DNA of 64,000 nucleotides, taken from the NCBI GenBank assembly GCA_036259355.1, contig DATABY010000046.1, forward strand, positions 1,290-65,289, read 5' to 3'. Below are positions 35,728 to 61,914 of this stretch, in pieces. The stretch is from Nocardioidaceae bacterium (GTDB lineage: Bacteria > Actinomycetota > Actinomycetes > Propionibacteriales > Nocardioidaceae). The notes beneath the pieces are model-generated. The model had not been told where the DNA came from. It saw only the letters and a program-made list of their open reading frames with translations, and made no database searches. The first letter of the stretch is position 1; every line of letters begins with the position of its first letter. Position numbers and translations under genes: made by a program.

Positions 35728-36956
35728 AGCAACAGATCCGCCTCGTCGGGCGGCGGCGGGGGCGTGACCTCGGTGTCGGGCTTCTGGGTCAGGACCTGGT
35801 CCACGTAGTCCGTGGCCGCCTCGAACAGGTCGATCTCCTCCTCGGAGTGCTCGTTGAGGTACCAGCGGTGCTCGAGGATCTCGTGGAAGACCTCGGCCGG
35901 CTCCAGCTTGCCGCGCAGCTCCGGGCGCACCAGCCGGACGATCGGCTCGAACACCGAGGTCAACCACTTGTGCGCTATCACGGTCTCGTCCTCCTGCTGC
36001 AGCCCGTGCGCGGCGGCGAAGGCGTCGAGGTCGTTGAGCAGCCGCTGAGCCTGGTTCTCCTCGACGGCCAGTCCGGTGAGCGCCTGCAGCCGCCGGGAGT
36101 GGTGGCCCGGATCGACGACCTTGGGCTGGATCCGCACGGTGGCGCCGTCCCAGTCGGTGACGATGTCGAGCTCGTCGATGTCGAAGCCCATCTGGTTCAG
36201 CCGCCGGATGCGCTGCTCGATGCGCCACATCTCCCCGGTGGTGAACTCCTCGGGCCCGGTGAGCTCCTCCCACAGCGCGTCGTACCGCGCCCGCAGCAGC
36301 TCCGCGATCTCGCCGGCGTCGACGGACTCGTCGAGGTAGCCGCCGGCCTGCAGGTCGAGGATCTCCGCGAACACGTTCGACGTGCCGATCTCCAGGTCGT
36401 GGGCGCGCTGGCCGTCCGACAGGGTCTCGTGCAGCTCCCCGGTCTCGGCGTCGACGAGGTATGCCGCGAACGCGCCGGCGCTGGGCCGGAACAACGTGTT
36501 CGACAGCGAGCAGTCCCCCCAGTAGAAGCCCGCCAGGTGCAGCCGGTTGAGCAGCACGACGAGCGCGTCGACCAGCCGCACCATCGAGGCCGTCGGCAGC
36601 TCCTGGGCGAACATCGCCCGGTAGGGCATCGAGAACGTGAGGTGCCGGGTGACCAGGGCCGGCTGGATCGGCTCGCCGTCGGTGTCGACCCGTCCGGTGA
36701 CCACACCCACCGGCTCGACTGCCGGCTCCGCCAGGCGACGCAGGTCGCGCAGGGTCCGGTACTCGCGCAGGGCGATCGGCTCCGGGGTCTCCTTGAGCGC
36801 GTACACGCTGTCCGCCAGCTGCACGAACCTCACGACGTGGCGGGAGATGCCGCGGGGCAGCGGCACCAGATGCTCGTCCCAGTCCTCGAGGCACAGGTGC
36901 CACGGCAGGGTCAGCAACGCCGGGTCGGGCCGCGTCGCGACGATCTGCAGGGCCAT
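35724..36956 (-). CDS. DUF4032-type protein with protein-kinase-like (RIO/Kdo-kinase-like) N-terminal domain
   Basis: 410 aa. Catalytic-loop-like LHLAGFYWGDCSLSNTLF and YLVDAETGE, then a long helical C-terminal domain. Family name recalled from memory. Confidence 0.7.
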   Translation of the reverse strand: MALQIVATRPDPALLTLPWHLCLEDWDEHLVPLPRGISRHVVRFVQLADSVYALKETPEPIALREYRTLRDLRRLAEPAVEPVGVVTGRVDTDGEPIQPALVTRHLTFSMPYRAMFAQELPTASMVRLVDALVVLLNRLHLAGFYWGDCSLSNTLFRPSAGAFAAYLVDAETGELHETLSDGQRAHDLEIGTSNVFAEILDLQAGGYLDESVDAGEIAELLRARYDALWEELTGPEEFTTGEMWRIEQRIRRLNQMGFDIDELDIVTDWDGATVRIQPKVVDPGHHSRRLQALTGLAVEENQAQRLLNDLDAFAAAHGLQQEDETVIAHKWLTSVFEPIVRLVRPELRGKLEPAEVFHEILEHRWYLNEHSEEEIDLFEAATDYVDQVLTQKPDTEVTPPPPPDEADLLL

Positions 36957-36966
36957 GGGCCGCAGC

Positions 36967-37449
36967 CTAGTGCGGCGGTGACTCTCCGTCGCGCAGGTAG
37001 ACGGCGCCCGGTCCGCGCGCGGCGACGACGTCGTCGGGGTTGGAGAGCGCGCAGCGGCGCAGCGACAGGCACCCGCAGCCGATGCAACCGGTCAGCTTGG
37101 TCTTCAGCCGTTCCAGCTCGCGGATCTGCGCGTCCAACCGGTCCTGCCAGTGCCGCGACAGCCGCGCCCAGTCCGCCCGCGTCGGTGTGCGGTTGTCGGG
37201 CAGGGTGCTCAACGCCTCGCGGATCTCGTCGATGCTCAGACCGACGCGCTGCGCGGCGCGGACGAACGCCACCCGACGCAGCTGGCTGCGCGCATAGCGG
37301 CGCTGGTTGCCCGTCGTACGTTCGGACCGGATGAGCCCGCGCTGCTCGTAGAAGCGCAGGGCGGAGGGGGCGACGCCGGCGCGGGCGGCCAGCTCGCCGA
37401 TCGTGAGGTGGTCGGCCAGCCTGGCCATCCGCTCACCCCCTCCGGTCAA
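36967..37449 (-). CDS. soxR: Redox-sensitive MerR-family activator SoxR
   Basis: MerR HTH (LTIGELAARAGVAPSALRFYE) and the [2Fe-2S] motif CIGCGCLSLRRCALSNP. ATG 37428 is an alternative start. Confidence 0.85.
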   Translation of the reverse strand: MTGGGERMARLADHLTIGELAARAGVAPSALRFYEQRGLIRSERTTGNQRRYARSQLRRVAFVRAAQRVGLSIDEIREALSTLPDNRTPTRADWARLSRHWQDRLDAQIRELERLKTKLTGCIGCGCLSLRRCALSNPDDVVAARGPGAVYLRDGESPPH

Positions 37450-37522: not shown

Positions 37523-37696
37523 CTACTTCTTGAAGGCGTCCTTCACCTTCTCGGCGGCCTGCTTGAGGTTGGCCTTCGACTCCTCAGCGCGGCCCTCGTT
37601 GGCCACGTCCTCGTTGCCGGTGGCCTCGCCGGCCTCCCGCTTGCCCTTGGCGTAGGCCTCCTCGGCCTTGTTCTGGGTCTTGTCGTCGGTACCCAT
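37523..37696 (-). CDS. CsbD-family stress-response protein
   Basis: 57-aa MGTDDKTQNKAEEAYAKGKREAGEATGNEDVANEGRAEESKANLKQAAEKVKDAFKK. The longer ORF to 37927 was rejected. Confidence 0.8.
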   Translation of the reverse strand: MGTDDKTQNKAEEAYAKGKREAGEATGNEDVANEGRAEESKANLKQAAEKVKDAFKK

Positions 37697-37785
37697 CGGG
37701 GCGCTCACCTCGCTCGCATCGGGTGCTTCCGTACTCTCGGTACGTACCCGGGCCGTGGCCCTGGAAACGGCGACCCGCCCTGTGG

Positions 37786-37799
37786 TAGAACGTGTTCTA
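37786..37799. promoter_or_regulatory. KstR-type operator TAGAACGTGTTCTA
   Basis: Perfect TAGAAC/GTTCTA inverted repeat with a 2-nt spacer, intergenic, 16 bp upstream of ATG 37815. Matches the TnnAACnnGTTnnA KstR consensus. Confidence 0.7.
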
Positions 37800-37814
37800 G
37801 GTCTCGGAGGTGCC

Positions 37815-38348
37815 ATGGTCGACGTCCACGGTGAAGGCGCAGTGCGTCGTCGCGGCACTGCGGATCCGCGCCGAGCAAGCCGGATGAGCGAGAGCGAGGC
37901 GTGGGGGCTCGTCGCCGCGCAGCGCAAGCTTCAGGTCGCCACGGTCGGTCCCGACGGCTGGCCGCACCTGGTGACGATGTTCCACACCATCCTGGCCGGC
38001 CGCCTGGTGTTCTGGACATATGCCAGGTCCCAGAAGATTTCCAATCTCGCGCGTGACCCGCGACTGACGTGCCTCGTTGAGGCGGGTGAGGAGTACGCAG
38101 AGCTCCGTGGGGTCCAGATCGTCGGGACGGCACGGATCATGCGCGCACGCGAGGACATCGCCCCGGTCGGCCGCGCCGTCGTATGCCGCATGCTCGGGCT
38201 GGACCCGGCAGACGAGCTGGACCCCGCGATCGCCAAAGAGGTGGCCAGGCAGGCGGAGAAGCGGGTCGCCGTCGAGGTGGTGCCCCAGCGGCTGGCGAGC
38301 TGGGACCACCGCAAGCTGACCGACCGCCACAAGAGGGCGACGTCCTAG
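37815..38348 (+). CDS. Pyridoxamine-5'-phosphate-oxidase-fold (PPOX / F420- or FMN-dependent) oxidoreductase
   Basis: LQVATVGPDGWPHLVTM and ELRGVQIVGTA are typical of the split-barrel family. GGAGG lies 4 nt before ATG 37815. ATG 37884 is an alternative start. Confidence 0.72.
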   Translation: MVDVHGEGAVRRRGTADPRRASRMSESEAWGLVAAQRKLQVATVGPDGWPHLVTMFHTILAGRLVFWTYARSQKISNLARDPRLTCLVEAGEEYAELRGVQIVGTARIMRAREDIAPVGRAVVCRMLGLDPADELDPAIAKEVARQAEKRVAVEVVPQRLASWDHRKLTDRHKRATS

Positions 38349-38619: not shown

Positions 38620-38633
38620 CGGAACACGTTCTA
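38620..38633. promoter_or_regulatory. KstR-type operator CGGAACACGTTCTA upstream of yrbE4A
   Basis: 13/14 match to TnnAACnnGTTnnA. It sits between a -35-like TTGTCC (38609-38614) and a -10-like TAGTCT (38632-37). Confidence 0.62.
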
Positions 38634-38712: not shown

Positions 38713-39495
38713 GTGGGTGGCGTGGCCAATGTGGCGACGAGCGCGCTGCGCTTCTCCGGAGAGTTCGCGGCGATGGCGGTCGACGTCACCAAGGCCATGC
38801 CGAGGCGGCCGTTCCAGTGGCGTGAGTGCGTGGAGCAGGCGTGGTTCATCGCCAGCGTCACGATCATGCCGACGATCCTGGTCTCGATCCCCTTCGGGGC
38901 GGTCATCTCGCTCCAGGTGGGCCAGCTCACCGGCCAGCTCGGTGCCCAGTCGTTCGCCGGGGCCTCCGCGGTGCTGGCCGTCGTACGGGAGGCGGCCCCG
39001 ATCGCGGCGGCACTGCTGATCGCCGGAGCCGCCGGATCGGCCATCTGTGCCGACCTGGGCTCGCGCACCATCCGCGAAGAGATCGCCGCGATGGAAGTGC
39101 TCGGGGTCAACCCGATCGCCAGGCTCGTGGTGCCGCGGGTGTTCGCGGCGATGTTCGTCGCCTTCTGGCTCAACGGACTGGTGATCGCGGCCGGCATCGC
39201 CGGCGGCTACTTCTTCCATGTCGTGATCCAGAACGGCTCGGCCGGCGCCTACCTGTCCTCGTTCACCGCGCTCGCCACGATGCCCGACCTGTACGTCAGC
39301 CTGATCAAGTCGGTCGTCTTCGCGTGGCTCGCCGCGATCATGGGCTCGTACAAGGGCCTGACCGCCGGCGGCGGACCCAAGGGCGTCGGGCAGGCCGTCA
39401 ACGAGTCGGTGATCGCCTCGTTCATGTTGCTGTTCATGTTCAACGCGATCGCCAGCGCCATCTACTTCCAGGTCATCCCACAGCGGGGCCTGTGA
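38713..39495 (+). CDS. yrbE4A: Mce-system permease YrbE4A (MlaE family)
   Basis: 260-aa polytopic protein with EEIAAMEVLGVNP (MlaE signature). First gene of the mce operon. Confidence 0.85.
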   Translation: MGGVANVATSALRFSGEFAAMAVDVTKAMPRRPFQWRECVEQAWFIASVTIMPTILVSIPFGAVISLQVGQLTGQLGAQSFAGASAVLAVVREAAPIAAALLIAGAAGSAICADLGSRTIREEIAAMEVLGVNPIARLVVPRVFAAMFVAFWLNGLVIAAGIAGGYFFHVVIQNGSAGAYLSSFTALATMPDLYVSLIKSVVFAWLAAIMGSYKGLTAGGGPKGVGQAVNESVIASFMLLFMFNAIASAIYFQVIPQRGL

Positions 39496-49022: not shown

Positions 49023-49036
49023 GAGAACACGTTCTA
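49023..49036. promoter_or_regulatory. KstR-type operator GAGAACACGTTCTA upstream of hsd4A
   Basis: 13/14 match to the consensus. It sits between a -35-like TTGCGT (49011-16) and a -10-like TAGTGT (49035-40). Confidence 0.65.
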
Positions 49037-49094: not shown

Positions 49095-50000
49095 ATGGCT
49101 CCTGCCCCCGCCGGCACCGACCTGGAGGGTCGGGTCGCGATCGTCACCGGGGCCGGTGCCGGGCTGGGTCGGTCCGAGGCGCTGGCGCTGGCCCGCTCGG
49201 GCGCGAGGCTGGTCCTCAACGACCTCCCCGGTGCCGCCGACGCGGTGGCGGACGAGGTCGGCCAGGTCGGCTCCGAGGCGCTCGTGGTCGCCGGGGACGT
49301 GTCGGAGCGCAGCACGGCGGACGAGCTGCTGCGTGTGGCGGTCGACCGGTTCGGCGCGCTGGACATCATGGTCAACAACGCGGGCGTGCTGCGAGACCGG
49401 ATGCTGTTCAACATGTCCGACGATGAGTGGGACCTCGTGCTCAAGGTCCATCTGCGTGGGCACTTCCTCACCTCCCGCAACGCGGCGGCGTACTGGCGGG
49501 AACGCTCGAAGGCGGCCGGCGGGCCGGTCTACGGCCGTGTGGTCAACACCGCTTCGGAGGCGTTCCTGGTCGGGTCCGAGGGGCAGCCCAACTACGCCTC
49601 CGCCAAGGCCGGTATCGCGGCACTCACGGTGTCGACCGCACGGGCCCTGCACCGCTACGGCGTGCGGGCCAACGCGATCTGCCCGCGGGCGAGAACGGCG
49701 ATGACCTCGGCCGTCTTCGGCGACGCCCCGGCGGACGGCATCGACCCGCTCTCGCCCGAGCATGTGGCGCCGCTGGTCGCCTACCTCGCCTCGCCGGCCG
49801 CGGAGGACGTCACCGGCCAGGTGTTCGTGGTGTACGGCGGCATGGTGGCGCTGATGGCCCCGCCGAGCGTGGAGAAGCGGTTCGACGCCAGCGCGCCGAC
49901 CTGGACGCAGGACGACCTCGCCCAGACGCTCGGCAGCTACTTCGAGTCGCGCGACCCGGAAGAGAACTTCTCCTGCCGTGAGGTCATGGAGCTCAGCTGA
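49095..50000 (+). CDS. hsd4A: SDR-family 3-hydroxyacyl-CoA / 17-beta-hydroxysteroid dehydrogenase (Hsd4A-like)
   Basis: VTGAGAGLGR, NNAG and YASAKAG (YxxxK). SD GAGGAGAAG. Adjacent to mce4, as Rv3502c is in M. tuberculosis. Confidence 0.72.
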   Translation: MAPAPAGTDLEGRVAIVTGAGAGLGRSEALALARSGARLVLNDLPGAADAVADEVGQVGSEALVVAGDVSERSTADELLRVAVDRFGALDIMVNNAGVLRDRMLFNMSDDEWDLVLKVHLRGHFLTSRNAAAYWRERSKAAGGPVYGRVVNTASEAFLVGSEGQPNYASAKAGIAALTVSTARALHRYGVRANAICPRARTAMTSAVFGDAPADGIDPLSPEHVAPLVAYLASPAAEDVTGQVFVVYGGMVALMAPPSVEKRFDASAPTWTQDDLAQTLGSYFESRDPEENFSCREVMELS

Positions 50001-50824: not shown

Positions 50825-51451
50825 TCAGCGCAGGAGCAGGCGTACGGCGATCTCCATCTCGCGGGCGACGTCGCTGGCCGACGCCCGGCCGGTGACCCAG
50901 GCGACGAGGCTGGCCAGCCACACGTCGCCGATGACCTTCGCGATCGCCTTGTCCTCGTCGTTGGCCTCGTGGTCGGGGCCGTGCATGGCACGCACGAACA
51001 TGTACTCCATACGCATGCCCACCGCATGCACCTCCACCGCGGCCGAGGCGTCGGCGAACATGAAGGCACGGGTCACCGCCTCGGTGAGGTTGGGGTCGCG
51101 CTGCATCGCGCGGGTCGTCCGGCCCAGCACGAACAGCACCCGGTCGTACGGCGTGTCACCGGGGATCGTGGTGCGGTCGAGCTTGGCCTGTGCGCGCTCG
51201 AACTCCTGCGCCAGCGCCGAGACCAGCAGGTGGATCTTCGACGGGAAGTAGCGGTACAGCGTGCCCAGGGCCACGTCGGCGCGCTCGGCCACCGCCCGCA
51301 TCTGCACGGCGTCGAAGCCGCCCTTGGACGCCAGCGCAAGCGTGGCGTCGAGGATGCGCTGCCGCCGGTCACGCTGCGCGGCGGAGCCGAGATTGTCATC
51401 GGTCAGGGCGCTCATGGGATCCCCCTTACCCGATGTCCGCATCTGCGTCAT
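50825..51451 (-). CDS. kstR: TetR-family steroid-catabolism repressor KstR
   Basis: SAAQRDRRQRILDATLALASKGGFDAVQMRAVAERADVALGTLYRYFPSKIHLLVSAL and VWLASLVAWVTGRASASDV closely match my recollection of Rv3574. Start may be the internal ATG (MSALTDD). Confidence 0.85.
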   Translation of the reverse strand: MTQMRTSGKGDPMSALTDDNLGSAAQRDRRQRILDATLALASKGGFDAVQMRAVAERADVALGTLYRYFPSKIHLLVSALAQEFERAQAKLDRTTIPGDTPYDRVLFVLGRTTRAMQRDPNLTEAVTRAFMFADASAAVEVHAVGMRMEYMFVRAMHGPDHEANDEDKAIAKVIGDVWLASLVAWVTGRASASDVAREMEIAVRLLLR

Positions 51452-51546
51452 GCATCCTCCACGCCCCTATGACCGGGCCTTTAGTGACCGGGGCCACGGC
51501 GTAAAGCCGTGGCATTCTCTACGCTAACATTCCCCAACACATAAAT

Positions 51547-51560
51547 CAGAACACGTTTCA
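51547..51560. promoter_or_regulatory. KstR-type operator CAGAACACGTTTCA in the intergenic region between kstR and the divergent glycosyltransferase gene
   Basis: 13/14 match to TnnAACnnGTTnnA. It lies 96 bp upstream of the kstR ORF start and 20 bp upstream of the GTG of the divergent gene, inside an AT-rich patch (CTAACATTCCCCAACACATAAATCAGAACACGTTTCAG). Confidence 0.62.
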
Positions 51561-51579
51561 GTGGAGCGGAGGTTGGCTC

Positions 51580-52824
51580 GTGCGCGTCGCTCTGCTGTCG
51601 TACCGCAGCAAGCCGCACTGCGGTGGACAGGGCGTCTACGTCCGCTATCTCAGCCGAGAGCTCGTCGCCCAGGGCCACACCGTGGAGGTGTTCTCCGGGC
51701 AGCCCTACCCCGAGCTCGACGCCGGCGTCACGCTGACGAAAGTTCCGAGTCTCGACCTGTACCGCGAGCCCGACCCGTTCCGGACCCCCCACCCGCGGGA
51801 GTTCCGCGACGCCATCGACCTGCTCGAGGTCGGCATCATGTACACCGCCGGGTTCCCCGAGCCGCTGACGTTCAGCCTCCGGGTCGCGCGGATGCTGCGC
51901 GACCGGGTCGACGACTTCGACATCGTGCACGACAACCAGTCGCTGGGCCTCGGCCTGCTCGGTCTGCCGGCGTCGGGCCTGCCCGTGGTGGCCACCGTGC
52001 ACCACCCGATCACGTTCGACCGTCGCGTCGACCTGGCCGCCGCGCGCAACCCGTGGCGCAAGCTGCTCACGCGACGCTGGTACGGCTTCCTGCGCATGCA
52101 GGGCCGCGTCGCCCGCAGGCTGCCGCAGCTCATCACGGTCTCCCGCTCCTCGGCCACCGACATCGCCGCCGACTTCGGCGTCGACCCCGGCCGGCTCCGC
52201 ACCATCCCGCTCGGCGTGGACGCGCAGACCTTCGCCCCGCCCACCGCGCCACGGGTGCCGGGCCGCATCGTCGCGATGGCCAGCGCCGACACCCCGATGA
52301 AGGGCGTGCACACGCTGCTGGAGGCGGTGGCCAAGCTGCGCACCGACCGTGAGGTGGAGCTGGTGCTGGTCAGCAGGCCGGTCCCGGGCGGACCGACCGA
52401 GCGGCTGGTCGAGGAACTCGCGATCGGCGACGTCGTCCGGTTCGCCAGCGGGCTGTCCGACGATGCCCTGGCCGACCTGATGGGGTCCGCCGAGGTCATG
52501 TGCGTGCCGTCCCTGTACGAGGGCTTCTCGCTGCCCACCGTGGAGGCGATGGCGTGCGGCACCCCACTGGTGGTCAGCCGCGCCGGCGCGATCCCCGAGG
52601 TGGTGGGGTCCGACGGACTCTGCGCCGACCAGGTGACGCCGGGCGACACCGAGGAGCTCGCCGCCGCCCTCGCTACGCTGCTCGCTGCGCCGGAGCGCCG
52701 GACGGCGATGGGGGAGGCCGGACGGGCCCGGGTGCTGGAGCGGTTCAGCTGGTCGTCGGTGGCCCGCTCGACCGCCGACTGCTACGCCGACGCGGTCGCC
52801 GAGTGGAGGAGGTCGACATGCTGA
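51580..52824 (+). CDS. GT4-family (GT-B fold) glycosyltransferase
   Basis: MRVALLSYRSKPHCGGQGVYVRYLSRELVAQGH N-terminus and the EGFSLPTVEAMACGTPLV E(x7)E-type motif. SD GGAGCGGAGG. Confidence 0.8.
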   Translation: MRVALLSYRSKPHCGGQGVYVRYLSRELVAQGHTVEVFSGQPYPELDAGVTLTKVPSLDLYREPDPFRTPHPREFRDAIDLLEVGIMYTAGFPEPLTFSLRVARMLRDRVDDFDIVHDNQSLGLGLLGLPASGLPVVATVHHPITFDRRVDLAAARNPWRKLLTRRWYGFLRMQGRVARRLPQLITVSRSSATDIAADFGVDPGRLRTIPLGVDAQTFAPPTAPRVPGRIVAMASADTPMKGVHTLLEAVAKLRTDREVELVLVSRPVPGGPTERLVEELAIGDVVRFASGLSDDALADLMGSAEVMCVPSLYEGFSLPTVEAMACGTPLVVSRAGAIPEVVGSDGLCADQVTPGDTEELAAALATLLAAPERRTAMGEAGRARVLERFSWSSVARSTADCYADAVAEWRRSTC

Positions 52825-53555
52825 CGGTGGACTTCGACCGGCTGGGCGTGCGTCCCGGCGACCGGGTGATCGACGTCGGCTGCGGGGCCGGACGGCACGC
52901 GTTCGAGCTGTACCGACGCGGCACCGACGTGGTCGCGTTCGACCAGGACGAGCCCGAGCTGCGTGCGGTCGCCGAGATGTTCGCCGCGATGAGGGCGCAG
53001 GGGCAGGTGCCCGAGAGCGGCAGCGCGCGCACGGTGCACGGCGACGCACTGGCACTCCCGTTCCCCGACGGCCACTTCGACCGTGTGGTGGCCTCCGAGA
53101 TCCTCGAGCACGTCCCGCAGGACGAGCGCGCGATCAGCGAGCTCGTCCGCGTCCTCCGACCGGGCGGGAGCGCCGCGGTCACCGTGCCGCGGTGGTGGCC
53201 GGAGAAGGTGTGCTGGGCGCTGTCGGACGCCTACCACCAGGTCGAGGGCGGCCACGTGCGCATCTACACCGGCCGAGAGCTGGCCACCAAGCTGAGCGGC
53301 GCCGGCCTGCAGGCGGTGGGGCGACAGCACGCCCACGGCCTGCATGCGCCCTACTGGTGGCTCAAGTGCGCGGTGGGGGTCGACCGCGACGATCATCCGC
53401 TGCCCCGGCTCTACCACCGGCTGCTGGTGTGGGACATGATGCGGCGCCCTTGGCTGACGCGGATCGCCGAGCGGGTGCTGAACCCGGTGCTCGGCAAGAG
53501 CCTGGTGCTGTACCTCCGCAAGCCGGCCACGGAGTCAGGTCGTGCCGCGGCCTGA
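52818..53555 (+). CDS. Class I SAM-dependent methyltransferase
   Basis: Motif I VIDVGCGAGRH, then LPFPDGHFDRVVASEILEHV and LRPGG. 7-nt overlap with the upstream gene. Confidence 0.82.
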   Translation: MLTVDFDRLGVRPGDRVIDVGCGAGRHAFELYRRGTDVVAFDQDEPELRAVAEMFAAMRAQGQVPESGSARTVHGDALALPFPDGHFDRVVASEILEHVPQDERAISELVRVLRPGGSAAVTVPRWWPEKVCWALSDAYHQVEGGHVRIYTGRELATKLSGAGLQAVGRQHAHGLHAPYWWLKCAVGVDRDDHPLPRLYHRLLVWDMMRRPWLTRIAERVLNPVLGKSLVLYLRKPATESGRAAA

Positions 53556-54654
53556 GCTGCCGGAGGTCCCAGGCGTCATCGCCGCCGACGCGATCGCCGC
53601 CACCGCGGACTCGGTGGCGGCGGTGCAGGAGCGCAGCGGCGCGATCCCCTGGTTCGCCGGCGGTCATGTCGACCCGTGGGACCACGTGGAGTGCGCGATG
53701 GCGCTGTCGGTCGCGGGCCGCTACGCCGAGGCGGAGCGGGCCTACCGGTGGCTGTTCGACACGCAGCGCGCCGACGGCTCCTGGCCGATCAAGGTCCGCG
53801 GCGGCCGGGTGGAGGACGCCGGGGCCGACACCAACTTCACCGCCTATCCCGCCGTCGGCGCCTGGCACCACTGGCTGCTGACGCGCTCGGAGCGGTTCGT
53901 CCGTGCGGCGTGGCCGGCGGTGCGACGCTCGCTCGACTTCGTCGTCTCGCTCCAGGCCGCACGTGGGGAGATCTTCTGGGCCCAAGGCCAGGCGAAGCAG
54001 GGCGTACGCGGCGTTGTGGACGAGACCGCGCTGCTCGCCGGCTGCGCCAGCATCCACCAGAGCCTGCGCTGCGGCCTCGCGCTCGCCGACCTGGTCGGCG
54101 AACCGCAACCGGAGTGGGAGATCGCACTGGGCCGGCTCCGCCACGTCCTGCGCCGCCATCCCGAGGCGTTCGCCGACCACAGCCGCTACTCGATGGACTG
54201 GTACTACCCGGTGCTCGGAGGCGCTGTGCGCGGACACCGCGGTCGCGAACGCGTCAAGGAACGCTGGCAAAGCTTCGTGGTGCCCGGCTGGGGCGCTCGA
54301 TGCGTCTCCGACCGTCCGTGGGTGACCGGTGCCGAGACCTGCGAGCTCGTGCTTTCGTTGCACGCCCTCGACGAGTACGACGCCGCCCTCGAGCTGTTCG
54401 AGTCCATGCAGCATCTGCGCGATCCCGACGGCTCGTACTGGACCGGCCACGTCGTCGACGCCGGTGTGCGCTGGCCGCAGGAGCGCAGCACGTGGACGGC
54501 CGCCGCGGTCATCCTCGCGGCCGACGCCCTGGCGGGGGCCACCCCGGCGAGCACGGTCTTCCGCGCCGACGACCTCCCCGCCGGGCTCGATGTGGAGGCC
54601 TGCGAATGTTGGGAGGAGACCGCGTCCGCCGGGCCGCATCTGGCCCGAGAATAG
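53542..54654 (+). CDS. Prenyltransferase / squalene-cyclase-repeat (alpha-alpha toroid) protein of unknown function
   Basis: Two QW-like repeats (QRADGSWPIK, RDPDGSYWTGH) and helical-hairpin periodicity. 14-nt overlap with the methyltransferase gene. Confidence 0.6.
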   Translation: MPRPELPEVPGVIAADAIAATADSVAAVQERSGAIPWFAGGHVDPWDHVECAMALSVAGRYAEAERAYRWLFDTQRADGSWPIKVRGGRVEDAGADTNFTAYPAVGAWHHWLLTRSERFVRAAWPAVRRSLDFVVSLQAARGEIFWAQGQAKQGVRGVVDETALLAGCASIHQSLRCGLALADLVGEPQPEWEIALGRLRHVLRRHPEAFADHSRYSMDWYYPVLGGAVRGHRGRERVKERWQSFVVPGWGARCVSDRPWVTGAETCELVLSLHALDEYDAALELFESMQHLRDPDGSYWTGHVVDAGVRWPQERSTWTAAAVILAADALAGATPASTVFRADDLPAGLDVEACECWEETASAGPHLARE

Positions 54655-54665
54655 AACACGTTCTA
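54652..54665. promoter_or_regulatory. KstR-type operator TAGAACACGTTCTA upstream of fadE34
   Basis: Perfect consensus, extendable to ATAGAAC-AC-GTTCTAT. It overlaps the TAG stop of the preceding gene and a -10-like TATAGT (54664-69). It lies 40 bp before the fadE34 ATG. Confidence 0.7.
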
Positions 54666-54704
54666 TAGTGGGGAGCCCGATCCCCCAGCCGCAGAGCGAG
54701 GCGA

Positions 54705-56927
54705 ATGCCGCCGATGTCCATCGCGATCACCCCCGAGCAGCGCGCGCTGCAGGAGAGCATCCGCTCCTGGGCGCAGCGCTCCGAGCCGATCGCATGGCTG
54801 CGCACGCGGGCCGACGCGGAGCAGGACGCGGTGCTTGCCGGTCCAGCACTGCCGGACTCCTGGAGGACGCTCGCGGGGCTCGGGCTGCTGGCGGTCCACC
54901 TCGGCGAGGACGTCGGCGGCTCCGGCGGCACGGTCACCGATCTCGCGGCCGGCCTCGAGGAAGCCGCCCGGGTGCAGGCTCCCGGCGCGGTGCTGACCAC
55001 GGCGCTCGCCGGCCTGCTGCTGGGCCGCTGCGACGGGACCGCTGCCAAGGAGCTGCTGCCGGCACTGGCCGAGGGCACCGCCGTCGCCGGCGTCGCGCTT
55101 TCTGCGCACGGCCTGCGGGCCCACCCCGACGGCGACGGAGTGCGCGTGCAGGGCGACACCGACTCCGTGCTCGACGCCGGGGTCGCCGACGTGCTGCTCC
55201 TGGGCGCAGGGTCGGCGGGCGGCGCCGAAACGTGGTGCGTGGTCGATGTTCGCGCCCCCGGGGTCACCGTGGAGCACCAGCGGCCCCTCGACCCGAGCCG
55301 TGCGCCGGCGAAGGTGCGCCTCGACCTCGTCGTACCCGCTGACCGGCTGCTGGGCGAGCTCGACGCGGCCACGGCTCAGGAGGCGGCCGCGGTGCTCGCC
55401 GCGGCGGAGGCTGCCGGGCTGGCCGCATGGGCCCTGTCCAGCGCGGTCGAGCACGCCCGCACCCGCGAGCAGTTCGGGCGACCGGTCGGCTCGTTCCAGG
55501 CGGTCAAGCACCTGTGCACGCAGATGCTGTGCCGTGCCGAGCTCGTCGCTGCCGCGGCATGGGATGCGGCCAGGGCGTACGACGACGGCTCCGCCGGTCG
55601 CGGCCTCGCCGCCGCGAGTGCGGCCGCCGTCGCCGTCGACGGTGCGGTCGACAACGCCAAGGACTGCATCCAGGTGCTCGGCGGCATCGGCTACACCTGG
55701 GAGCACGACGCGCACCTGTACCTCCGCCGCGCGCTCGCCCTGCGCGCCCTGCTCGGCGGGAGCGCCCGCTGGCGCACGCGCACCGCCGACCTGGCGCTGG
55801 CCGGCCGCCGACGGCACGCCCGCGTCTCGCTCGAGGGGCAGGCGGAGCAGACCCGCGACGACGTGCGTCGCGTCGCCGACTCCTGTCGGCACCTGGAGCC
55901 CGCGGAGCAGCGCCGGGTGCTCGCGGACAACGGCCTGCTCGCGCCGCACTGGCCGGAGCCGTACGGCCGGGACGCCGGACCGGCCGAGCAGCTGGTGATC
56001 GACGACGAGCTGGACCGGCAGGGCATCACGCGCCCCGGCCTGCTCATCGCCGGCTGGGCGCTGCCGACGATCATCGAGCACGGCAGCGACGAGCAGCGCG
56101 AGCGGTTCGTGCCGGACTCGCTGCGCGGGGCGATCACCTGGTGCCAGCTCTTCAGCGAACCCGGCGCCGGATCCGACCTCGCCTCCTTGCGCACGCGCGC
56201 CGAGCGCGTCGACGGCGGCTGGCGCCTCACCGGGCAGAAGGTGTGGACGTCGCTGGCGCACGAGGCGGACTGGGCGATCTGCCTGGCCCGCACCAACCCC
56301 GATGCGCCCAAGCACAAGGGCATCACGTACTTCCTCGTCGACATGCGCTCCGACGGCGTCGAGGTGCGTCCGCTACGGGAGATGACCGGCGACGCGCTGT
56401 TCAACGAGGTGTTCCTCGACGGCGTGATCGTGCCCGACGACTGCGTGGTGGGTGAGGTCGACGGCGGCTGGCGGCTGGCTCGCGCGACGCTGGCCAACGA
56501 GCGGGTCGCGATGTCGGGCGGCTCCTCCCTCGGCTCGGCAGTGGAGCATCTGCTCACGCTGGCCACCGAGAGCGGTGCCGCCGACGACCCGGTCACCCGG
56601 CACCGCCTCGGCGCGCTGGTCGCGCAGGGCCATGCCGTCTCCATGCTCGGACTGCGCAGCACCATGCGCAGCCTTCGCGGCGACGGCCCCGGAGCGGAGT
56701 CGAGCGTGCAGAAGCTGGTCGGGGTGGAGCACCGGCAGGCGGTGGGCGAGGCCGCGCTGGAGCTGCTGGGCCCGGGTGCCGCGGTGGTCGACGACCGCTC
56801 GTCGCCGGTGGTGCACGAGATGCTGCTCAGCCGGTGCCTGAGCATCGCCGGCGGCACCACCCAGGTGCTCCGGTCGCTGGTCGGCGAGCGCGTGCTCGGC
56901 CTGCCCCGCGAACCCGCCGGCACCTGA
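54705..56927 (+). CDS. fadE34: Two-domain (tandem ACAD) acyl-CoA dehydrogenase, FadE34/ChsE3-like
   Basis: 740 aa with two ACAD-like halves. The C-terminal half has WCQLFSEPGAGSD and GQKVWTSLA. The KstR operator upstream mirrors the Rv3573c/Rv3574 arrangement. Confidence 0.75.
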   Translation: MPPMSIAITPEQRALQESIRSWAQRSEPIAWLRTRADAEQDAVLAGPALPDSWRTLAGLGLLAVHLGEDVGGSGGTVTDLAAGLEEAARVQAPGAVLTTALAGLLLGRCDGTAAKELLPALAEGTAVAGVALSAHGLRAHPDGDGVRVQGDTDSVLDAGVADVLLLGAGSAGGAETWCVVDVRAPGVTVEHQRPLDPSRAPAKVRLDLVVPADRLLGELDAATAQEAAAVLAAAEAAGLAAWALSSAVEHARTREQFGRPVGSFQAVKHLCTQMLCRAELVAAAAWDAARAYDDGSAGRGLAAASAAAVAVDGAVDNAKDCIQVLGGIGYTWEHDAHLYLRRALALRALLGGSARWRTRTADLALAGRRRHARVSLEGQAEQTRDDVRRVADSCRHLEPAEQRRVLADNGLLAPHWPEPYGRDAGPAEQLVIDDELDRQGITRPGLLIAGWALPTIIEHGSDEQRERFVPDSLRGAITWCQLFSEPGAGSDLASLRTRAERVDGGWRLTGQKVWTSLAHEADWAICLARTNPDAPKHKGITYFLVDMRSDGVEVRPLREMTGDALFNEVFLDGVIVPDDCVVGEVDGGWRLARATLANERVAMSGGSSLGSAVEHLLTLATESGAADDPVTRHRLGALVAQGHAVSMLGLRSTMRSLRGDGPGAESSVQKLVGVEHRQAVGEAALELLGPGAAVVDDRSSPVVHEMLLSRCLSIAGGTTQVLRSLVGERVLGLPREPAGT

Positions 56928-56949: not shown

Positions 56950-59271
56950 GTGGACTTCTCCCTGGACGAGACGCAGCAGGCCGTGCAGCAGGTCGCGGCG
57001 GCGGTGCTGCGCCGCGAGCGCGAGCGGCTTGCCGCGCATGGCCACGACGACACGCTGGTTCCGCAGGCCGGTCCCGCCGTGGCCGACGCACCGGCGTACG
57101 ACGAGACCACCTGGAAGTCACTGGCTCAGGCGGGGATGCTGACGCTGACGGCGCCGCAACGGCTCGGTGGCGAGGGTCTCGGACTCCTCGAGGCCGCACT
57201 GGTGCTGCGGGAGATCGGCCGTCAGGTGATGCCGGTGCCCGCGGCCGCGACGTTCGCAGCGATGCTGTTCGTCGCCCGCAACGCCGCCGACGGTCAGCAG
57301 GACCGGTGGCTGGAGGGCACCGGTGCCGGTGACGCGCTGCTCACCTGTGCGCCCCCCGGTGCCGGCAGCGATGTCCGCGCCGAGCCCACCGAGGACGGCT
57401 GGCTGCTACGCGGGCGCGCCGCCGGCGTCGCGTACGCCCAGGCCGCCGGTTACGTGCTGCTCTCCGCCGTGGGGACGGGCGGACCGGTCGTCGTCGCGGT
57501 GGCACCCGCCGCGCGCGGAGTCACGGTGCGACCCGGGCACAGCTCCGCGCGGCGACCGGAGGCGACGGTCGTGCTCGACGGCGCCGTCGTGCCCGCCCGC
57601 GACGCCGTGGCCGGGGCCGACGCCGCCGGCGACCTCGAGCGGCTGTTCCTGGCCACCTCGTGCGCTGTCGCCGACGGTGTGCTGGCCGGCGCGCTGGAGC
57701 TCACCACCGAGCACGTCCGCACGCGCGAGCAGTTCGGCCGCCCACTGGCGTCGTTCCAGGGTGTCGCGGCGCAGGCCGCCGACGTCTACGTCGCCGTACG
57801 CACGACGCACCTGGCCACGCAGCGCGCCTGCTGGCGTCTGCACCATGGACTGGACGCCGACGAGGAGCTCGCGGTGGCGGCGTACTGGGCGGGCACGCAG
57901 GCTCCCGCCGCGATGCAGACGTGTCACCATCTGCACGGCGGCACCGGCGTCGACGCGACGTACCCGCTGCACCTGCACTACGGCTGGGTCAAGGACATCA
58001 CCCGCGTCCTCGGGGGCTCGGCCGGGACTCTGGACCGGCTCGGCGCCCGGCTGCGGCTCGACGACCGGGGTCACGAGGCGCCGCCCGAGGCGACCGGGAT
58101 GTTCATCGAGCTGACCGACCAGCAACGGGTGCTGCGGGACCGGCTGCGCACGTACTTCTCCGACCTGCTCTCCGCCGACGAGCGCCACACCATGCTGACC
58201 GAACGACACGGCCGCACCTACCGCGACGTGGTGCTGCGCATGGGCCGTGACGGCTGGCTCGGTGTCGGCTGGCCGCGGGAGTACGGCGGGCACGGCTTCG
58301 GTGAGGTGGAGCAGCAGATCTTCGTCAACGAGGCCGCGCGCGCCGACGTGCCGCTGCCGTACGTGACCCTGCAGACGGTCGGCCCGACCCTGCAAACGCA
58401 CGGAACCCCTGCGCAGCGGGAGATGTTCCTGCCGCGCATCCTCTCCGGCGACGTGCACTTCGCCATCGGCTACACCGAGCCCGACGCCGGCACCGACCTC
58501 GCCGCACTGCGCACCACCGCCGTGCGGGACGGCGACGAGTACGTCGTCAACGGCCAGAAGACGTTCACCACCGGCGCACACGACGCCGACTACATCTGGC
58601 TGGCGGTGCGCACCGACCCGGACGCGCCGCGGCACCAGGGGATCTCGATCCTGATCGTCGACACCAGGTCCGACGGCTACAGCTGGAGTCCGATCATCAC
58701 CTGCGACGGCGCGCACCACGTCAACGCGACCTACTTCGACAACGTACGGGTGCCGGCGTCCATGCTGGTCGGCGAGGAGAACAAGGGCTGGAGGCTGATC
58801 ACCACCCAGCTCAACCACGAGCGCGTGATGCTCGGCCCGGCGGGCCGTCTCGCCGGGCTGCTGCAGCGGGTCGTGGGCTGGGCGTCGGACCGGCAGGCGC
58901 CCGACGGCCGTCCGCTGCTGGAGACGCCCGCCGTACGCCGGGCCCTGGCGGAGGCGCAGGCCCGCCTCACGGTCAACGAGACACTCAACTGGCAGGTGGC
59001 CGTATCGGCAGCGGCCGGGCGGGTCCTGGTGGCCGACGCGTCGGCCACCAAGGTCTTCGCCTCCGAGCACGTCCAGCACATCGGGCGGCTGCTGGAGGAG
59101 GTCGTCGGCTCTTACGGCGACCCCGGCGAGCCCGCCACCGCGCAGCTGCTGAGCTGGCTCGACGTGCAGACCCGCCGCAACCTGGTGCTGACCTTCGGCG
59201 GCGGCGTGAACGAGATCCAGCGCGAGCTGATCGCCCAGATGGGTCTTGGTCTCCCGCGGGTGCCCCGGTGA
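56950..59271 (+). CDS. Single-polypeptide fusion of FadE28 (ChsE1)-like and FadE29 (ChsE2)-like acyl-CoA dehydrogenase subunits
   Basis: Continuous 773-aa ORF. aa 1-383 are FadE28-like (QAPAAMQTCHHLHGGTGVD). aa 384-773 start MFIELTDQQRVL and are FadE29-like (GYTEPDAGTDL, VNGQKTFTTGAHDADY, GGGVNEIQRELIA). Followed by chsH2-chsH1-ltp2. Confidence 0.8.
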   Translation: MDFSLDETQQAVQQVAAAVLRRERERLAAHGHDDTLVPQAGPAVADAPAYDETTWKSLAQAGMLTLTAPQRLGGEGLGLLEAALVLREIGRQVMPVPAAATFAAMLFVARNAADGQQDRWLEGTGAGDALLTCAPPGAGSDVRAEPTEDGWLLRGRAAGVAYAQAAGYVLLSAVGTGGPVVVAVAPAARGVTVRPGHSSARRPEATVVLDGAVVPARDAVAGADAAGDLERLFLATSCAVADGVLAGALELTTEHVRTREQFGRPLASFQGVAAQAADVYVAVRTTHLATQRACWRLHHGLDADEELAVAAYWAGTQAPAAMQTCHHLHGGTGVDATYPLHLHYGWVKDITRVLGGSAGTLDRLGARLRLDDRGHEAPPEATGMFIELTDQQRVLRDRLRTYFSDLLSADERHTMLTERHGRTYRDVVLRMGRDGWLGVGWPREYGGHGFGEVEQQIFVNEAARADVPLPYVTLQTVGPTLQTHGTPAQREMFLPRILSGDVHFAIGYTEPDAGTDLAALRTTAVRDGDEYVVNGQKTFTTGAHDADYIWLAVRTDPDAPRHQGISILIVDTRSDGYSWSPIITCDGAHHVNATYFDNVRVPASMLVGEENKGWRLITTQLNHERVMLGPAGRLAGLLQRVVGWASDRQAPDGRPLLETPAVRRALAEAQARLTVNETLNWQVAVSAAAGRVLVADASATKVFASEHVQHIGRLLEEVVGSYGDPGEPATAQLLSWLDVQTRRNLVLTFGGGVNEIQRELIAQMGLGLPRVPR

Positions 59272-60254
59272 GCGACGCTGCGAGCGCGGGGGAGCGGATC
59301 CAGGGCAGGGCCGCGCAGATCATCGCGGCCGGCGACAGTGCCCGGCGCATGGCACGCGACCCGGTCAACGAGGCGATGGTGCACAACTGGGTCGAGGCGC
59401 TCGACGACCGCAACCCCGTGTACGTCGACCGCTTGGCCGCGGAGGCGTCGGTGCACCAGGAGGTCGTCGCACCACCGGCGATGATCCAGGTGTGGACCAT
59501 GCCCGGGCTGCGGCCCGACCCCACCGTGCAGGACGGCGACCCCTTGCGACAGATGATGGGGGTGCTCGACCGGGAGGGGTTCACCTCCGTGGTCGCCACC
59601 GACTCCGAGCAGACCTACCACCGCTACCTGCGCATGGGCGAGCACCTCGAGGTGTCCACCCGGCTCGAGGAGGTGGTCGGCCCCAAGCGGACCGGTCTGG
59701 GCGAGGGCTGGTTCGTGACCACGGTGTCGACGTGGTGGGTCGGTGACGAGGCCGTCGGCCGGATGCGGTTCAAGGTGCTGAAGTTCCGCCCCAAGCAAGC
59801 GGAGAGGTCGGGCCGGTCGGAGCACCCGGAGGCGGTCGCGCCGGGCTCCGTGCTGCGGCCGGCGGTCAACCGCGACACCGCGTTCTTCTGGGAGGGCGCC
59901 CGAGCAGGCGAGCTGCGCATCCAGCGGTGCGAGGACTGCGGGGCCCTGCGGCACCCGCCGGGGCCCCTGTGCATCTCGTGCGGATCGACCCGGCGGGGCC
60001 ACACCGTGGCGAGCGGCCGGGGCGCCATCTTCAGCTACGTCGTGCACCACCACCCGCCGGTACCCGGCAAGGAGCTCCCCCTGGTGATCGTGCTGGTCGA
60101 GCTGAAGGAGGGTGTCCGCATGCTCGGCGAGCTGCACGACGCCGAACCGGAGACCGTCGCGATCGGGCAGCCGGTGCGGTCCCGGATGCACCGGGTCGAC
60201 GACGACCTGACCCTGCCGGCCTGGGTGCCGGCCGCATCGGAGGCAGACGCATGA
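59268..60254 (+). CDS. chsH2: MaoC-like enoyl-CoA hydratase subunit with C-terminal DUF35 OB-fold/zinc-ribbon domain (ChsH2-like)
   Basis: N-terminal hot-dog region plus a C-terminal CEDCGALRHPPGPLCISCGS zinc ribbon. GTGA coupling to the ACAD fusion. Confidence 0.78.
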   Translation: MSDAASAGERIQGRAAQIIAAGDSARRMARDPVNEAMVHNWVEALDDRNPVYVDRLAAEASVHQEVVAPPAMIQVWTMPGLRPDPTVQDGDPLRQMMGVLDREGFTSVVATDSEQTYHRYLRMGEHLEVSTRLEEVVGPKRTGLGEGWFVTTVSTWWVGDEAVGRMRFKVLKFRPKQAERSGRSEHPEAVAPGSVLRPAVNRDTAFFWEGARAGELRIQRCEDCGALRHPPGPLCISCGSTRRGHTVASGRGAIFSYVVHHHPPVPGKELPLVIVLVELKEGVRMLGELHDAEPETVAIGQPVRSRMHRVDDDLTLPAWVPAASEADA

Positions 60255-60709
60255 GCGCTGACTTGCTCGCACCCACGAAGACCGCGGCCGACGTGTCTGT
60301 GGGAGACCGGCTGGAAGCCGTGTCGGTCCCGATCACGCCGACGTTGGTCGTGAGCACGGCGCTGGCTACGCGCGACTTCCAGGACGTCCACCACGACCGT
60401 GACCTCGCGCAGAGCCGCGGGTCCAAGGACATCTTCCTCAACATCCTGACGAGCACCGGCCTGGTGCAGCGGTTCGTCACCGACTGGGCGGGACCGGAAG
60501 CCCTGGTGCGCGGGGTGTCGGTGCGGCTCGGAGCCCCGTGCTATCCCTACGACACGCTCCGCTTCGTCGGGGAGGTGACCGACCTGGTCACCGAGACGGC
60601 CGGTGCCATGGGGCCAGTCCTCCATATCGTCAAAGTGACTGGAAAGACCGAACTCGGTGACCATGTGGTCGCCACGGTGCGGCTGCAGCTGCCGGTCCGG
60701 GAGGCGTGA
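60251..60709 (+). CDS. chsH1: MaoC-like enoyl-CoA hydratase subunit (ChsH1-like)
   Basis: 152 aa with the hydratase motif RDFQDVHHDRDLA. ATGA coupling. Confidence 0.78.
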   Translation: MSADLLAPTKTAADVSVGDRLEAVSVPITPTLVVSTALATRDFQDVHHDRDLAQSRGSKDIFLNILTSTGLVQRFVTDWAGPEALVRGVSVRLGAPCYPYDTLRFVGEVTDLVTETAGAMGPVLHIVKVTGKTELGDHVVATVRLQLPVREA

Positions 60710-61914
60710 TGGCCGCGGGACCGCGTGCCACCGCCACGCCAAGGCACCTCTCGGGCCGCTGCGCGATCGCGGGCATCGGCGCGACCGACTTCTCCAAGGA
60801 CTCCGGCCGCAGTGAGCTGCGGCTCGCCGTGGAGTGCGTGCGCGCGGCGCTCGACGACGCCGGTCTGGCATCGGCCGACGTGGACGGCATGGTCACGTTC
60901 ACGATGGACGCCAACGCCGAGGTCGCGGTGGCGCGTGAGCTCGGTGTACCGGAGCTGCGGTTCTTCAGCCGCGTCCCGTACGGCGGTGGTGCCGCGTGTG
61001 CGACCGTGCAGCAGGCCGCGATGGCGGTCGCCACCGGAGTCGCCGACGTCGTGGTCTGCTACCGGGCGTTCAACGAGCGGTCCGGACAGCGCTTCGGGCA
61101 GGTGTCCCAGGCCGCGCTGACGCAGCCGACGTCGTCCGGGGTGGACAACAGCTGGTCCTACCCGTTCGGGCTCGGTACACCTGCCGCCAGCGTCGCGATG
61201 TTCGCGCAGCGGTACATGCACCGGACGGGCGCCACCAGCGCCGACTTCGGCCGGGTCGCGGTCGCCGACCGCAGGCACGCCGCGACCAACCCCAACGCGT
61301 GGTTCTACGAGCGGCCGATCACCTTGGCGGACCACCAGGCCTCCCGATGGATGACCGAGCCGCTGCACCTGCTCGACTGCTGCCAGGAGACCGACGGCGG
61401 CGTGGCGCTGGTGGTGACCAGCACGGAGCGAGCGCGCGACCTGCCGAACCCGCCGGCCGTGGTGGTCGCCGCGGCGCAGGGCAGCGGGCGCGACCAGTTC
61501 ACGATGACCAGCTACTACCGCGACGACCTGACCGGGCTGCCCGAGATGGGTCTCGTCGGCAGCCAGCTCTGGTCGCAGTCGGGGCTGCGCCCCGACGACG
61601 TGCAGACCGCGGTGCTCTACGACCACTTCACGCCGTTCGTGCTGGTGCAGCTCGAGGAGCTCGGCTTCTGCGCGTTCGGCGAGGCCAGGGACTTCATCGC
61701 CGACGGCGCGATCGAGGTGGGTGGCCGGCTGCCGCTGAACACGCACGGCGGTCAGCTGGGGGAGGCCTACATCCACGGCATGAACGGCATCGCCGAGGGC
61801 GTACGCCAGGTCCGCGGGTCGGCGGTGAACCAGGTCGACGACGTGGCGCACGTGCTGGTGACCGCGGGCACCGGCGTGCCCACCAGCGGCCTGGTGCTCT
61901 CCGCTTCGGTGTGA
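60706..61914 (+). CDS. ltp2: Thiolase-fold steroid side-chain retro-aldolase (Ltp2-like, nonspecific lipid-transfer protein family)
   Basis: CAIAGIGATDFSKDSGRSE and NTHGGQLGEAYIHGMNG (SCP-x-type thiolase fold). Last gene of the igr-like operon. Confidence 0.78.
   Translation: MMAAGPRATATPRHLSGRCAIAGIGATDFSKDSGRSELRLAVECVRAALDDAGLASADVDGMVTFTMDANAEVAVARELGVPELRFFSRVPYGGGAACATVQQAAMAVATGVADVVVCYRAFNERSGQRFGQVSQAALTQPTSSGVDNSWSYPFGLGTPAASVAMFAQRYMHRTGATSADFGRVAVADRRHAATNPNAWFYERPITLADHQASRWMTEPLHLLDCCQETDGGVALVVTSTERARDLPNPPAVVVAAAQGSGRDQFTMTSYYRDDLTGLPEMGLVGSQLWSQSGLRPDDVQTAVLYDHFTPFVLVQLEELGFCAFGEARDFIADGAIEVGGRLPLNTHGGQLGEAYIHGMNGIAEGVRQVRGSAVNQVDDVAHVLVTAGTGVPTSGLVLSASV

Follow-up and report, generated by a model that had tools for sequence, protein, structure and literature searches.

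Predicted methylmannose polysaccharide genes as the divergent partner of kstR in a Nocardioidaceae steroid locus

What is a cassette of sugar- and methyl-transfer genes doing between fadE34 and kstR, the gene for a repressor of cholesterol catabolism? In mycobacteria and in Nocardia farcinica, kstR has been described as divergent from fadE34 “in all cases” (Kendall 2007, PMC1995591). In the Nocardioidaceae DNA analysed here (contig DATABY010000046.1; a stretch of 64,000 nucleotides, referred to below as the window), three plus-strand genes lie between the two. Judging from their sequences, these are almost certainly manT, meT3 and mmpH, three of the four known genes for 3-O-methylmannose polysaccharide (MMP), and we consider it likely overall that this MMP operon is the divergent partner of kstR and is damped by KstR.

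The locus runs from kstR (50825-51451, minus strand) through manT (51580-52824, plus), meT3 (52818-53555, plus) and mmpH (53542-54654, plus) to fadE34 (54705-56927, plus). A first-pass annotation of this DNA had described the trio between kstR and fadE34 as translationally overlapping, with a GT4 glycosyltransferase followed by an S-adenosylmethionine (SAM) methyltransferase; the coordinates and the overlaps of 7 nt (manT/meT3) and 14 nt (meT3/mmpH) are as it claimed, and the domains behind both labels were found. It had taken the third gene to encode a prenyltransferase/squalene-cyclase-repeat protein, and this label did not survive: the protein is a close homologue of the MMP hydrolase MmpH (PDB 7QSJ), with an E value of 1.9e-134 and 57.5% identity over its whole length. 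Residues Asp47, Asp50, Glu262, Glu265, Asn101 and Trp315 of the published MmpH correspond to D44, D47, E265, E268, N98 and W318 in the window, and all six are invariant in an alignment of 11 homologues. The first protein matches the mannosyltransferase ManT (PDB 7QSG; E 1.1e-161, 63% identity), and the GT-B signature residues His142, Lys240, Glu313 and Glu321 are aligned and identical in it. For both enzymes, the listed catalytic residues have been shown by mutagenesis to be important (PMC9883506). The class I SAM-dependent methyltransferase between them (Pfam Methyltransf_11/25) is 59-65% identical to the gene at the same position in mycobacterial MMP clusters, and its start, MLTVDFDRLG, is common to homologues. 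We named the cassette manT-meT3-mmpH because of the 7QSG and 7QSJ matches with their catalytic residues kept, together with the position of the methyltransferase gene. The exact sequence of the window’s MmpH, which comes from an uncultured actinomycete, had no match on record; its closest relative is a metagenome protein (96% identity), and the family has more than 7,600 homologues at E<=1e-10.

In M. hassiacum, a four-gene cluster encoding ManT, pMeT3, MmpH and MeT1 builds and recycles MMP: ManT transfers alpha-(1->4)-mannose from GDP-mannose onto oligomannoside primers, pMeT3 is presumed to methylate position 3 (its 3-O-methyltransferase activity is putative in the literature), MmpH, an endo-alpha-(1->4)-mannosidase, cuts mature chains into primers, and the published model has MeT1 capping these MmpH products at their free reducing end (PMC9883506). 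The solved fold of the MmpH homologue 7QSJ is an (alpha/alpha)6 barrel, and the family is a glycoside hydrolase family (PMC9883506). ManT accepts only oligomannosides of more than 3 units. The polysaccharide is described in the literature as cytoplasmic, as binding and wrapping long acyl chains and acyl-coenzyme A (acyl-CoA), and as modulating fatty-acid metabolism; the sole known phenotype of an MMP mutant comes from M. smegmatis, which then grows more slowly at 15 C.

These assignments bear directly on an earlier proposal that the trio forms a steroid- or terpenoid-modifying or sensing module, in which a protein with a terpene-cyclase fold would hold a sterol or polyprenyl molecule that receives sugar and methyl groups. 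Its location inside a KstR-controlled steroid locus speaks for such a module, as does the database name “prenyltransferase” on homologues of the third protein. Against it, that protein gave no Pfam match at E<=1e-3, whether to prenyltransferase, cyclase or repeat families, and contains no DxDD, DDxxD or QxxxW (QW) motif, its weak sub-threshold family matches being to glucoamylase-type hydrolases and no others; it keeps the acid and base residues of the solved endomannosidase. ManT, in turn, resembles an enzyme restricted to oligomannoside acceptors, and the same trio occurs at non-steroid loci in many organisms. With all three proteins being close homologues of MMP enzymes, the sterol- or terpenoid-modifying module is already largely refuted, and we regard it as very improbable.

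The source of the misleading label can be suggested. The NCBI pipeline names MmpH homologues “prenyltransferase” or [quoted passage not shown], which is the likely origin of the terpenoid-cyclase-fold description; some JGI records carry the correct name, “MMP endo-(1,4)-3-O-methyl-alpha-D-mannosidase”. The ManT structure 7QSG was itself deposited as “D-inositol 3-phosphate glycosyltransferase”.

How firmly does KstR belong to this locus? The regulator, which has the Pfam domains TetR_N and TetR_C_20, scores 309.5 bits against NF033703, the NCBIfam equivalog model for KstR (cutoff 280), and is thus a true KstR. Scanned with the operator motif TnnAACnnGTTnnA, the window contains 2 exact matches (0.05 expected) and 12 matches with at most one mismatch (2.0 expected), a number that 0/100 shuffles reach. 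Further boxes lie before the hsd4A-like short-chain dehydrogenase/reductase (SDR) gene at 49095, in which SDR domains were found (GAGAACACGTTCTA, 49023-49036), and before the first mce4-type permease gene, a yrbE/MlaE gene at 38713 (CGGAACACGTTCTA, 38620-38633). Because of the excess of boxes and these good sites before the permease and hsd4A-like genes, this is, as far as sequence can tell, a genuine steroid locus under KstR control.

Two KstR operators had been said to bracket the trio. The one at its far end, operator 2 (TAGAACACGTTCTA, 54652-54665), is indeed a perfect match; the one at the kstR end, operator 1 (CAGAACACGTTTCA, 51547-51560), is present with one mismatch to the motif, at the outer T; 19 nt separate it from the start codon of manT, and about 96 nt from that of kstR. 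Read on the minus strand, operator 1 is TGAAACGTGTTCTG, which has 13/14 identity to the experimentally bound Rv3545c/46 site of M. tuberculosis (Kendall, PMC1995591). We aligned the intergenic region with those of relatives down to 75% MmpH identity, namely two of the four closest metagenome relatives (L003 and L004 of L001-L004) and the closest genome, a Nocardioidaceae metagenome-assembled genome (MAG; L058). The invariant elements follow one another in the order inverted repeat, TACGCTAACAT block, box core GAACAyGTT, GGAG-type ribosome-binding site and start codon. The core of operator 1 is invariant among these aligned relatives, and the TACGCTAACAT block (51520-51530) is identical in all four sequences. 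This block contains -10-like TAnnnT hexamers on both strands, TAACAT on the manT side and TAGCGT on the kstR side, which may be two -10 elements. With the hexamers as -10s, operator 1 would fall at about +11 to +29 of the manT mRNA and, for kstR, would cover the promoter’s -35 region, so that one KstR dimer could repress both the manT operon and kstR.

The inverted repeat, GCCACGG-N7-CCGTGGC (51493-51513), lies in the kstR leader within the shared region; among the four sequences its stem is largely kept, with some substitutions, and its loop is variable. An Rfam scan of the whole window gave no match, which places this hairpin outside the known RNA families, and it could either bind a second protein or fold as RNA within the 5′ untranslated region of kstR. 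The JGI gene call for ManT in L001 (7943-9283) starts 32 codons earlier, giving 446 aa, and would make the equivalent of operator 1 part of the gene; when the sequence is aligned with the PDB protein and the relatives, the comparison favours the 414-aa form that starts at 51580 in the window.

Is the arrangement peculiar to this contig? We assembled an MmpH-centred sample of 80 genome loci across Actinomycetota and a KstR-centred sample of 80 metagenome loci whose KstR relatives are 63-76% identical. The order manT-meT3-mmpH is found in 76 of the genome loci; the four exceptions lack just a recovered ManT, most of them because the contig breaks off there. In 20/80, manT has a KstR or KstR-like gene as its divergent neighbour: twelve of these regulators are 59-85% identical to the window’s KstR (Nocardioides, other Propionibacteriales, MAGs and Saccharopolyspora dendranthemae), and the other eight, from Streptomyces, Embleya and Nocardioides solisilvae, share 44-47% identity with it. 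Three of the five neighbouring regulators tested pass the KstR equivalog cutoff (from Saccharopolyspora, a Nocardioidaceae MAG and N. taihuensis); those of the Actinomycetota MAG L064 (250 bits) and of Streptomyces (201 bits) fall below it. Among the metagenome loci, kstR diverges from a fused acyl-CoA dehydrogenase gene in 42 and from manT in 15; the neighbour is something else or undetermined in 12, with 11 left unjudged for having too little upstream sequence. The direct kstR-fadE34 divergence that the first-pass annotation took as its reference holds in mycobacteria and Nocardia farcinica, as published, but is not general.

Which partner a given kstR has follows its phylogeny. In a neighbour-joining tree, the manT-paired KstRs, including that of the window, form one block with the Streptomyces proteins basal, and the dehydrogenase-paired ones form another, the single exception being Saccharopolyspora dendranthemae; the label of the nearest neighbour agrees for 37/38 ManT-paired and 41/41 FadE-paired regulators. 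Relatives whose MmpH is as little as 74% identical still show the kstR-manT arrangement, as do Nocardioides and Saccharopolyspora, and in L058 the kstR-trio unit is intact with both flanks unlike those of the window. Given this recurrence, a recent insertion of the trio is unlikely. The KstR clade, the recurrence and the preservation of the unit in L058 indicate instead that the pairing is old and characteristic of a lineage, comprising a large KstR clade in Nocardioidaceae-like lineages with the KstR-like regulators of Streptomyces at its base. The second of the two types of fused dehydrogenase found in the window (56950-59271; see below), not the fadE34 type, is the better match to the divergent gene of kstR in many of the metagenome loci (L108, L110, L112 and others).

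The operator follows the pairing. Each of the 39 kstR-manT pairs examined has a box between the two genes, 28-148 bp from manT in all 20 genome-locus pairs, and box density is 1.25/kb in the 360 bp before manT against 0.137/kb in the rest of the same loci (nine times). The boxes between kstR and manT are consistently a variant lacking one outer T/A (AGGAACACGTTCCA or AGAAACACGTTTCA), and those between kstR and a dehydrogenase gene are canonical. There are also boxes before manT with no kstR nearby, in two Dietzia loci, in Rhodococcus indonesiensis and in five Streptosporangiaceae loci.

Details of these more distant loci are as follows. In Dietzia, the box lies about 90 bp before manT (position 7785 of L036, GCGAACGTGTTCTA; 7783 of L037, GAGAACGTGTTCTA), directly after a same-strand gene of 1,319-1,325 aa whose N-terminus is rpoC-like, and because of this position manT is its only plausible target. 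The Streptosporangiaceae loci (L054, L057, L070, L074 and L081) have an exact-pattern box about 170-245 bp upstream of manT, TAGAACACGTTCTA in L057 and L074 and one- or two-base variants in L054, L070 and L081, with a GDP-mannose 4,6-dehydratase gene (gmd; Pfam GDP_Man_Dehyd, 419 bits) running divergently on the far side of the box. In none of these five is kstR next to manT, and in L081 there is only a 39%-identical TetR gene about 2.4 kb upstream on the same strand. In Embleya and Streptomyces (L040, L042, L072, L073, L076, L077 and L079), a KstR-like TetR gene (44-45% identity, 201 bits) is divergent from manT, with an exact-pattern box (TGAAACTTGTTCTA, TGAAACCTGTTCTA or TGTAACTTGTTCTA) about 130 bp upstream of manT. 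Kendall 2007 (PMC1995591) named SCO2319 alone as a possible Streptomyces orthologue of KstR, at 32% identity and without synteny.

Operator 2 appears to have a different client. The mmpH stop codon supplies its first three bases, and a -10-like TATAGT (54664-54669) overlaps its end; the gene that follows encodes a fadE34 (chsE3)-type fused double acyl-CoA dehydrogenase of 740 aa with two sets of acyl-CoA dehydrogenase domains. Terminator scans of both intergenic regions were negative, so that none was seen between mmpH and fadE34. The kstR loci of Nocardioides and Saccharopolyspora have the order kstR, box, manT-meT3-mmpH, an oppositely oriented meT1, an exact operator match (TGGAACACGTTCTA or TAGAACATGTTCTA) and fadE34, and because the equivalent box sits there we assign operator 2 to what was a meT1/fadE34 divergent promoter. 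By this reading of the sequence it is the fadE34 promoter operator, predicted to control fadE34 and not the trio. Loss of meT1 in the window’s lineage would have left it abutting the mmpH stop codon.

The fourth MMP gene is indeed missing from this stretch. With the gene next to mmpH in Mycobacterium parascrofulaceum as the tblastn query (it matches PDB 6G7D at E 6e-110), meT1 was found within the fetched flanks of 76/80 genome loci, usually convergent with and directly after mmpH, and gave nothing significant in the 64-kb window, in L001-L004 or in L058. The chains made by this lineage may go without the cap; alternatively, the genome may carry meT1 at another site. The more radical version of the former, that the product is a related polymer without the canonical MMP form, for instance lacking the 1-O-methyl cap or acetylated like the MMP of Streptomyces griseus, draws on this absence, which sets the window and its five relatives apart from most loci, and on the capping role of MeT1 in the published model. 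We think it quite unlikely, in view of the otherwise ordinary ManT, MeT3 and MmpH and of the possibility that meT1 lies beyond the 64 kb seen, as it does several kb from mmpH in some Streptomyces loci. The M. smegmatis gene MSMEG_6482, the MeT1 orthologue in PMC9883506, is described in a 2026 paper (PMC13445384) as “MepM”, a host methyltransferase needed for phage tail-protein methylation, with methylmannose unmentioned.

Does KstR then act on the trio, or do the two merely adjoin? The first-pass annotation thought the cassette probably regulated by KstR and steroids, and expression data from a close parallel bear on this. The tables for Nocardioides simplex VKM Ac-2033D (PMC7593942, PMC7807495) list KR76_12270 as kstR (minus strand), 12275 as a putative glycosyl transferase, 12280 as a putative methyltransferase, 12285 as a “prenyltransferase”, 12290 as a “putative secreted protein” (minus strand) and 12295 as fadE34, with KstR sites predicted at both ends of the cassette, the kstR-side site scoring worse. 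With cholesterol, KR76_12275 rises 4.6-fold (q 0.03), and with lithocholate 4.9-fold (q 0.012). These cassette genes stand in the supplementary tables only, unrecognised as MMP genes and absent from the main texts. A transcriptome paper on Saccharopolyspora hirsuta is silent on the cassette genes, and in it kstR and mce4 are uninduced at 24 h. Taken with the box in every kstR-manT pair and the boxes before manT without kstR, the response of the manT-position gene supports the regulatory link, and from the sequence evidence we lean towards KstR control of the manT-meT3-mmpH operon. Because operator 1 is a conserved but slightly degenerate variant, we expect this predicted control to be modest, and its amplitude is probably so.

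Several observations weigh against this conclusion. The rise of KR76_12275 is small next to the 30- to 226-fold increases that these tables give for core steroid genes, there are no values for the methyltransferase and the “prenyltransferase”, and no cassette gene is listed as induced on phytosterol; moreover, KR76_12275-12290 are equated with manT, meT3, mmpH and meT1 by order, strand and annotation only. A sigma-70 consensus promoter scan of both intergenic regions detected nothing, so the promoter geometry proposed above rests on footprinting. The loci with a box before manT and no kstR amount to about three independent lineages, against roughly three one-mismatch matches expected by chance, and their support for KstR control is real, not overwhelming. 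In 52 of the 80 genome loci, among them every mycobacterial locus and most of those from Rhodococcus and Nocardia, manT has no kstR-like gene next to it and no convincing box before it, so MMP can evidently be made without KstR. Autoregulation of kstR could also be the sole task of operator 1, a one-mismatch box of conserved position: it shares its region with the kstR promoter, and sequence does not assign it to one target.

These points could be assembled into a simpler account, in which the trio is a housekeeping MMP operon indifferent to steroids, operator 1 serves kstR, operator 2 serves fadE34 and the adjacency is historical. It gains from the majority of MMP clusters, which have neither kstR nor a box, from the marginal change in a single N. 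simplex cassette gene and from the precedent of mycobacterial kstR, which is autoregulated through a box in its own promoter (PMC1995591). We nevertheless consider it unlikely. Operator 1 lies so close to the manT start, and downstream of the -10-like block, that a manT transcript starting there must cross it; boxes precede manT in Dietzia, Rhodococcus indonesiensis and Streptosporangiaceae, where no kstR is close by; and the kstR-manT unit is kept when its flanks change, with the pairing tracking the KstR clade. The suspicion that a widespread cassette had merely landed here is thus half borne out: the cassette is widespread, and synteny shows most of its copies, the mycobacterial ones included, to be unlinked to kstR, but a pairing that defines a KstR clade is not a chance landing.

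How would an MMP operon under KstR control work? KstR bound at operator 1, between the -10-like element and the manT ribosome-binding site, would hold the operon down, and probably kstR too. As a steroid-CoA effector accumulated, KstR would be released and the cassette would rise alongside the genes for mce4-type uptake and side-chain beta-oxidation. Since MMP wraps long acyl chains, it could then buffer amphipathic, detergent-like acyl- or steroyl-CoA thioesters during catabolism. Binding of steroid-CoA by MMP is speculative, a further point that counsels caution, and a role for MMP in steroid or lipid catabolism is a tentative suggestion. More doubtful still is its broadest form, in which much of Actinomycetota places MMP synthesis under repressors of the KstR family, MMP is an intracellular carrier or buffer for long-chain acyl-CoA and steroid-CoA, and the kstR-manT pairing may be as old as kstR-fadE34 or older. 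If these ideas are right, MMP has a role beyond the modulation of fatty-acid synthesis or cold adaptation, and the manT-paired KstR-like regulators of Streptomyces are MMP regulators that respond to a lipid-CoA signal.

Other features of the window complete the picture of its surroundings. Downstream of fadE34 come a second fused double acyl-CoA dehydrogenase gene (56950-59271), a chsH-like gene (59268-60254) and a thiolase gene (60706-61914). A perfect box, TAGAACGTGTTCTA (37786-37799), lies between a MerR-family gene (36967-37449, minus strand) and a doubtful open reading frame (37668-38348, plus strand), about 900 bp ahead of the mce4-type operon, whose own box is the one at 38620. Two one-mismatch sites within a DUF4032/kinase-like gene, at 36367 and 36490, may have arisen by chance.

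What role polymethylated polysaccharides have in the cell has been a question for decades, the best data being their influence on fatty-acid synthase in vitro and a slight growth defect in the cold. Outside mycobacteria, the conserved divergence of kstR and manT offers a testable hypothesis on the role of MMP, in culturable models such as Nocardioides and Saccharopolyspora. The locus also exposes the widespread “prenyltransferase” misannotation of MmpH homologues, which misled the earlier reading, and it shows that the rule of kstR always being divergent from fadE34 needs correcting, since it fails for a sizeable KstR clade. Our literature search found no paper linking kstR and methylmannose, only incidental co-mentions of polymethylated polysaccharides and cholesterol, and nothing relevant on MSMEG_6481-6484 in KstR or cholesterol studies; the MMP paper (PMC9883506) mentions neither kstR nor cholesterol. 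What was known, then, is the MMP gene cluster (2019/2023), and what we did not find described is the wiring of its genes to KstR. New relative to the described system are the three-gene form without meT1, the position as divergent partner of kstR and the boxes conserved across the clade.

Set beside known systems, the locus combines familiar parts in an unfamiliar order. The weak glucoamylase-type matches of MmpH recall the (alpha/alpha)6-barrel hydrolases of GH15 and GH125 (clan GH-L), to which the published MmpH structure is similar; sequence identity to these is very low, and MmpH differs in its specificity for methylated alpha-(1->4)-mannan (PMC9883506). The mycobacterial MMP clusters (M. 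hassiacum MHAS_04402-04405 and M. smegmatis MSMEG_6481-6484; Ripoll-Rozada 2019, Maranha 2023 = PMC9883506) have the same three enzymes in the same order as the window; they continue into meT1, which the window lacks, and have neither kstR nor a box nearby, whereas the window’s cassette lies between kstR and fadE34 with KstR boxes. Steroid cluster B of N. simplex VKM Ac-2033D (KR76_12270-12295) is the nearest parallel, with the same order and strands by annotation and KstR sites at both ends, although it keeps a minus-strand gene at the meT1 position before fadE34 where the window has none. With the mycobacterial kstR-fadE34 pair, whose two genes share one KstR operator (Kendall 2007, PMC1995591), finally, the window shares a true KstR, the same palindromic motif and a fadE34 preceded by a perfect box that overlaps a -10-like hexamer, much as in the mycobacterial operator. 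It departs from that pair in having manT rather than fadE34 as the divergent partner of kstR, with the box between them a conserved variant that lacks one outer T/A.

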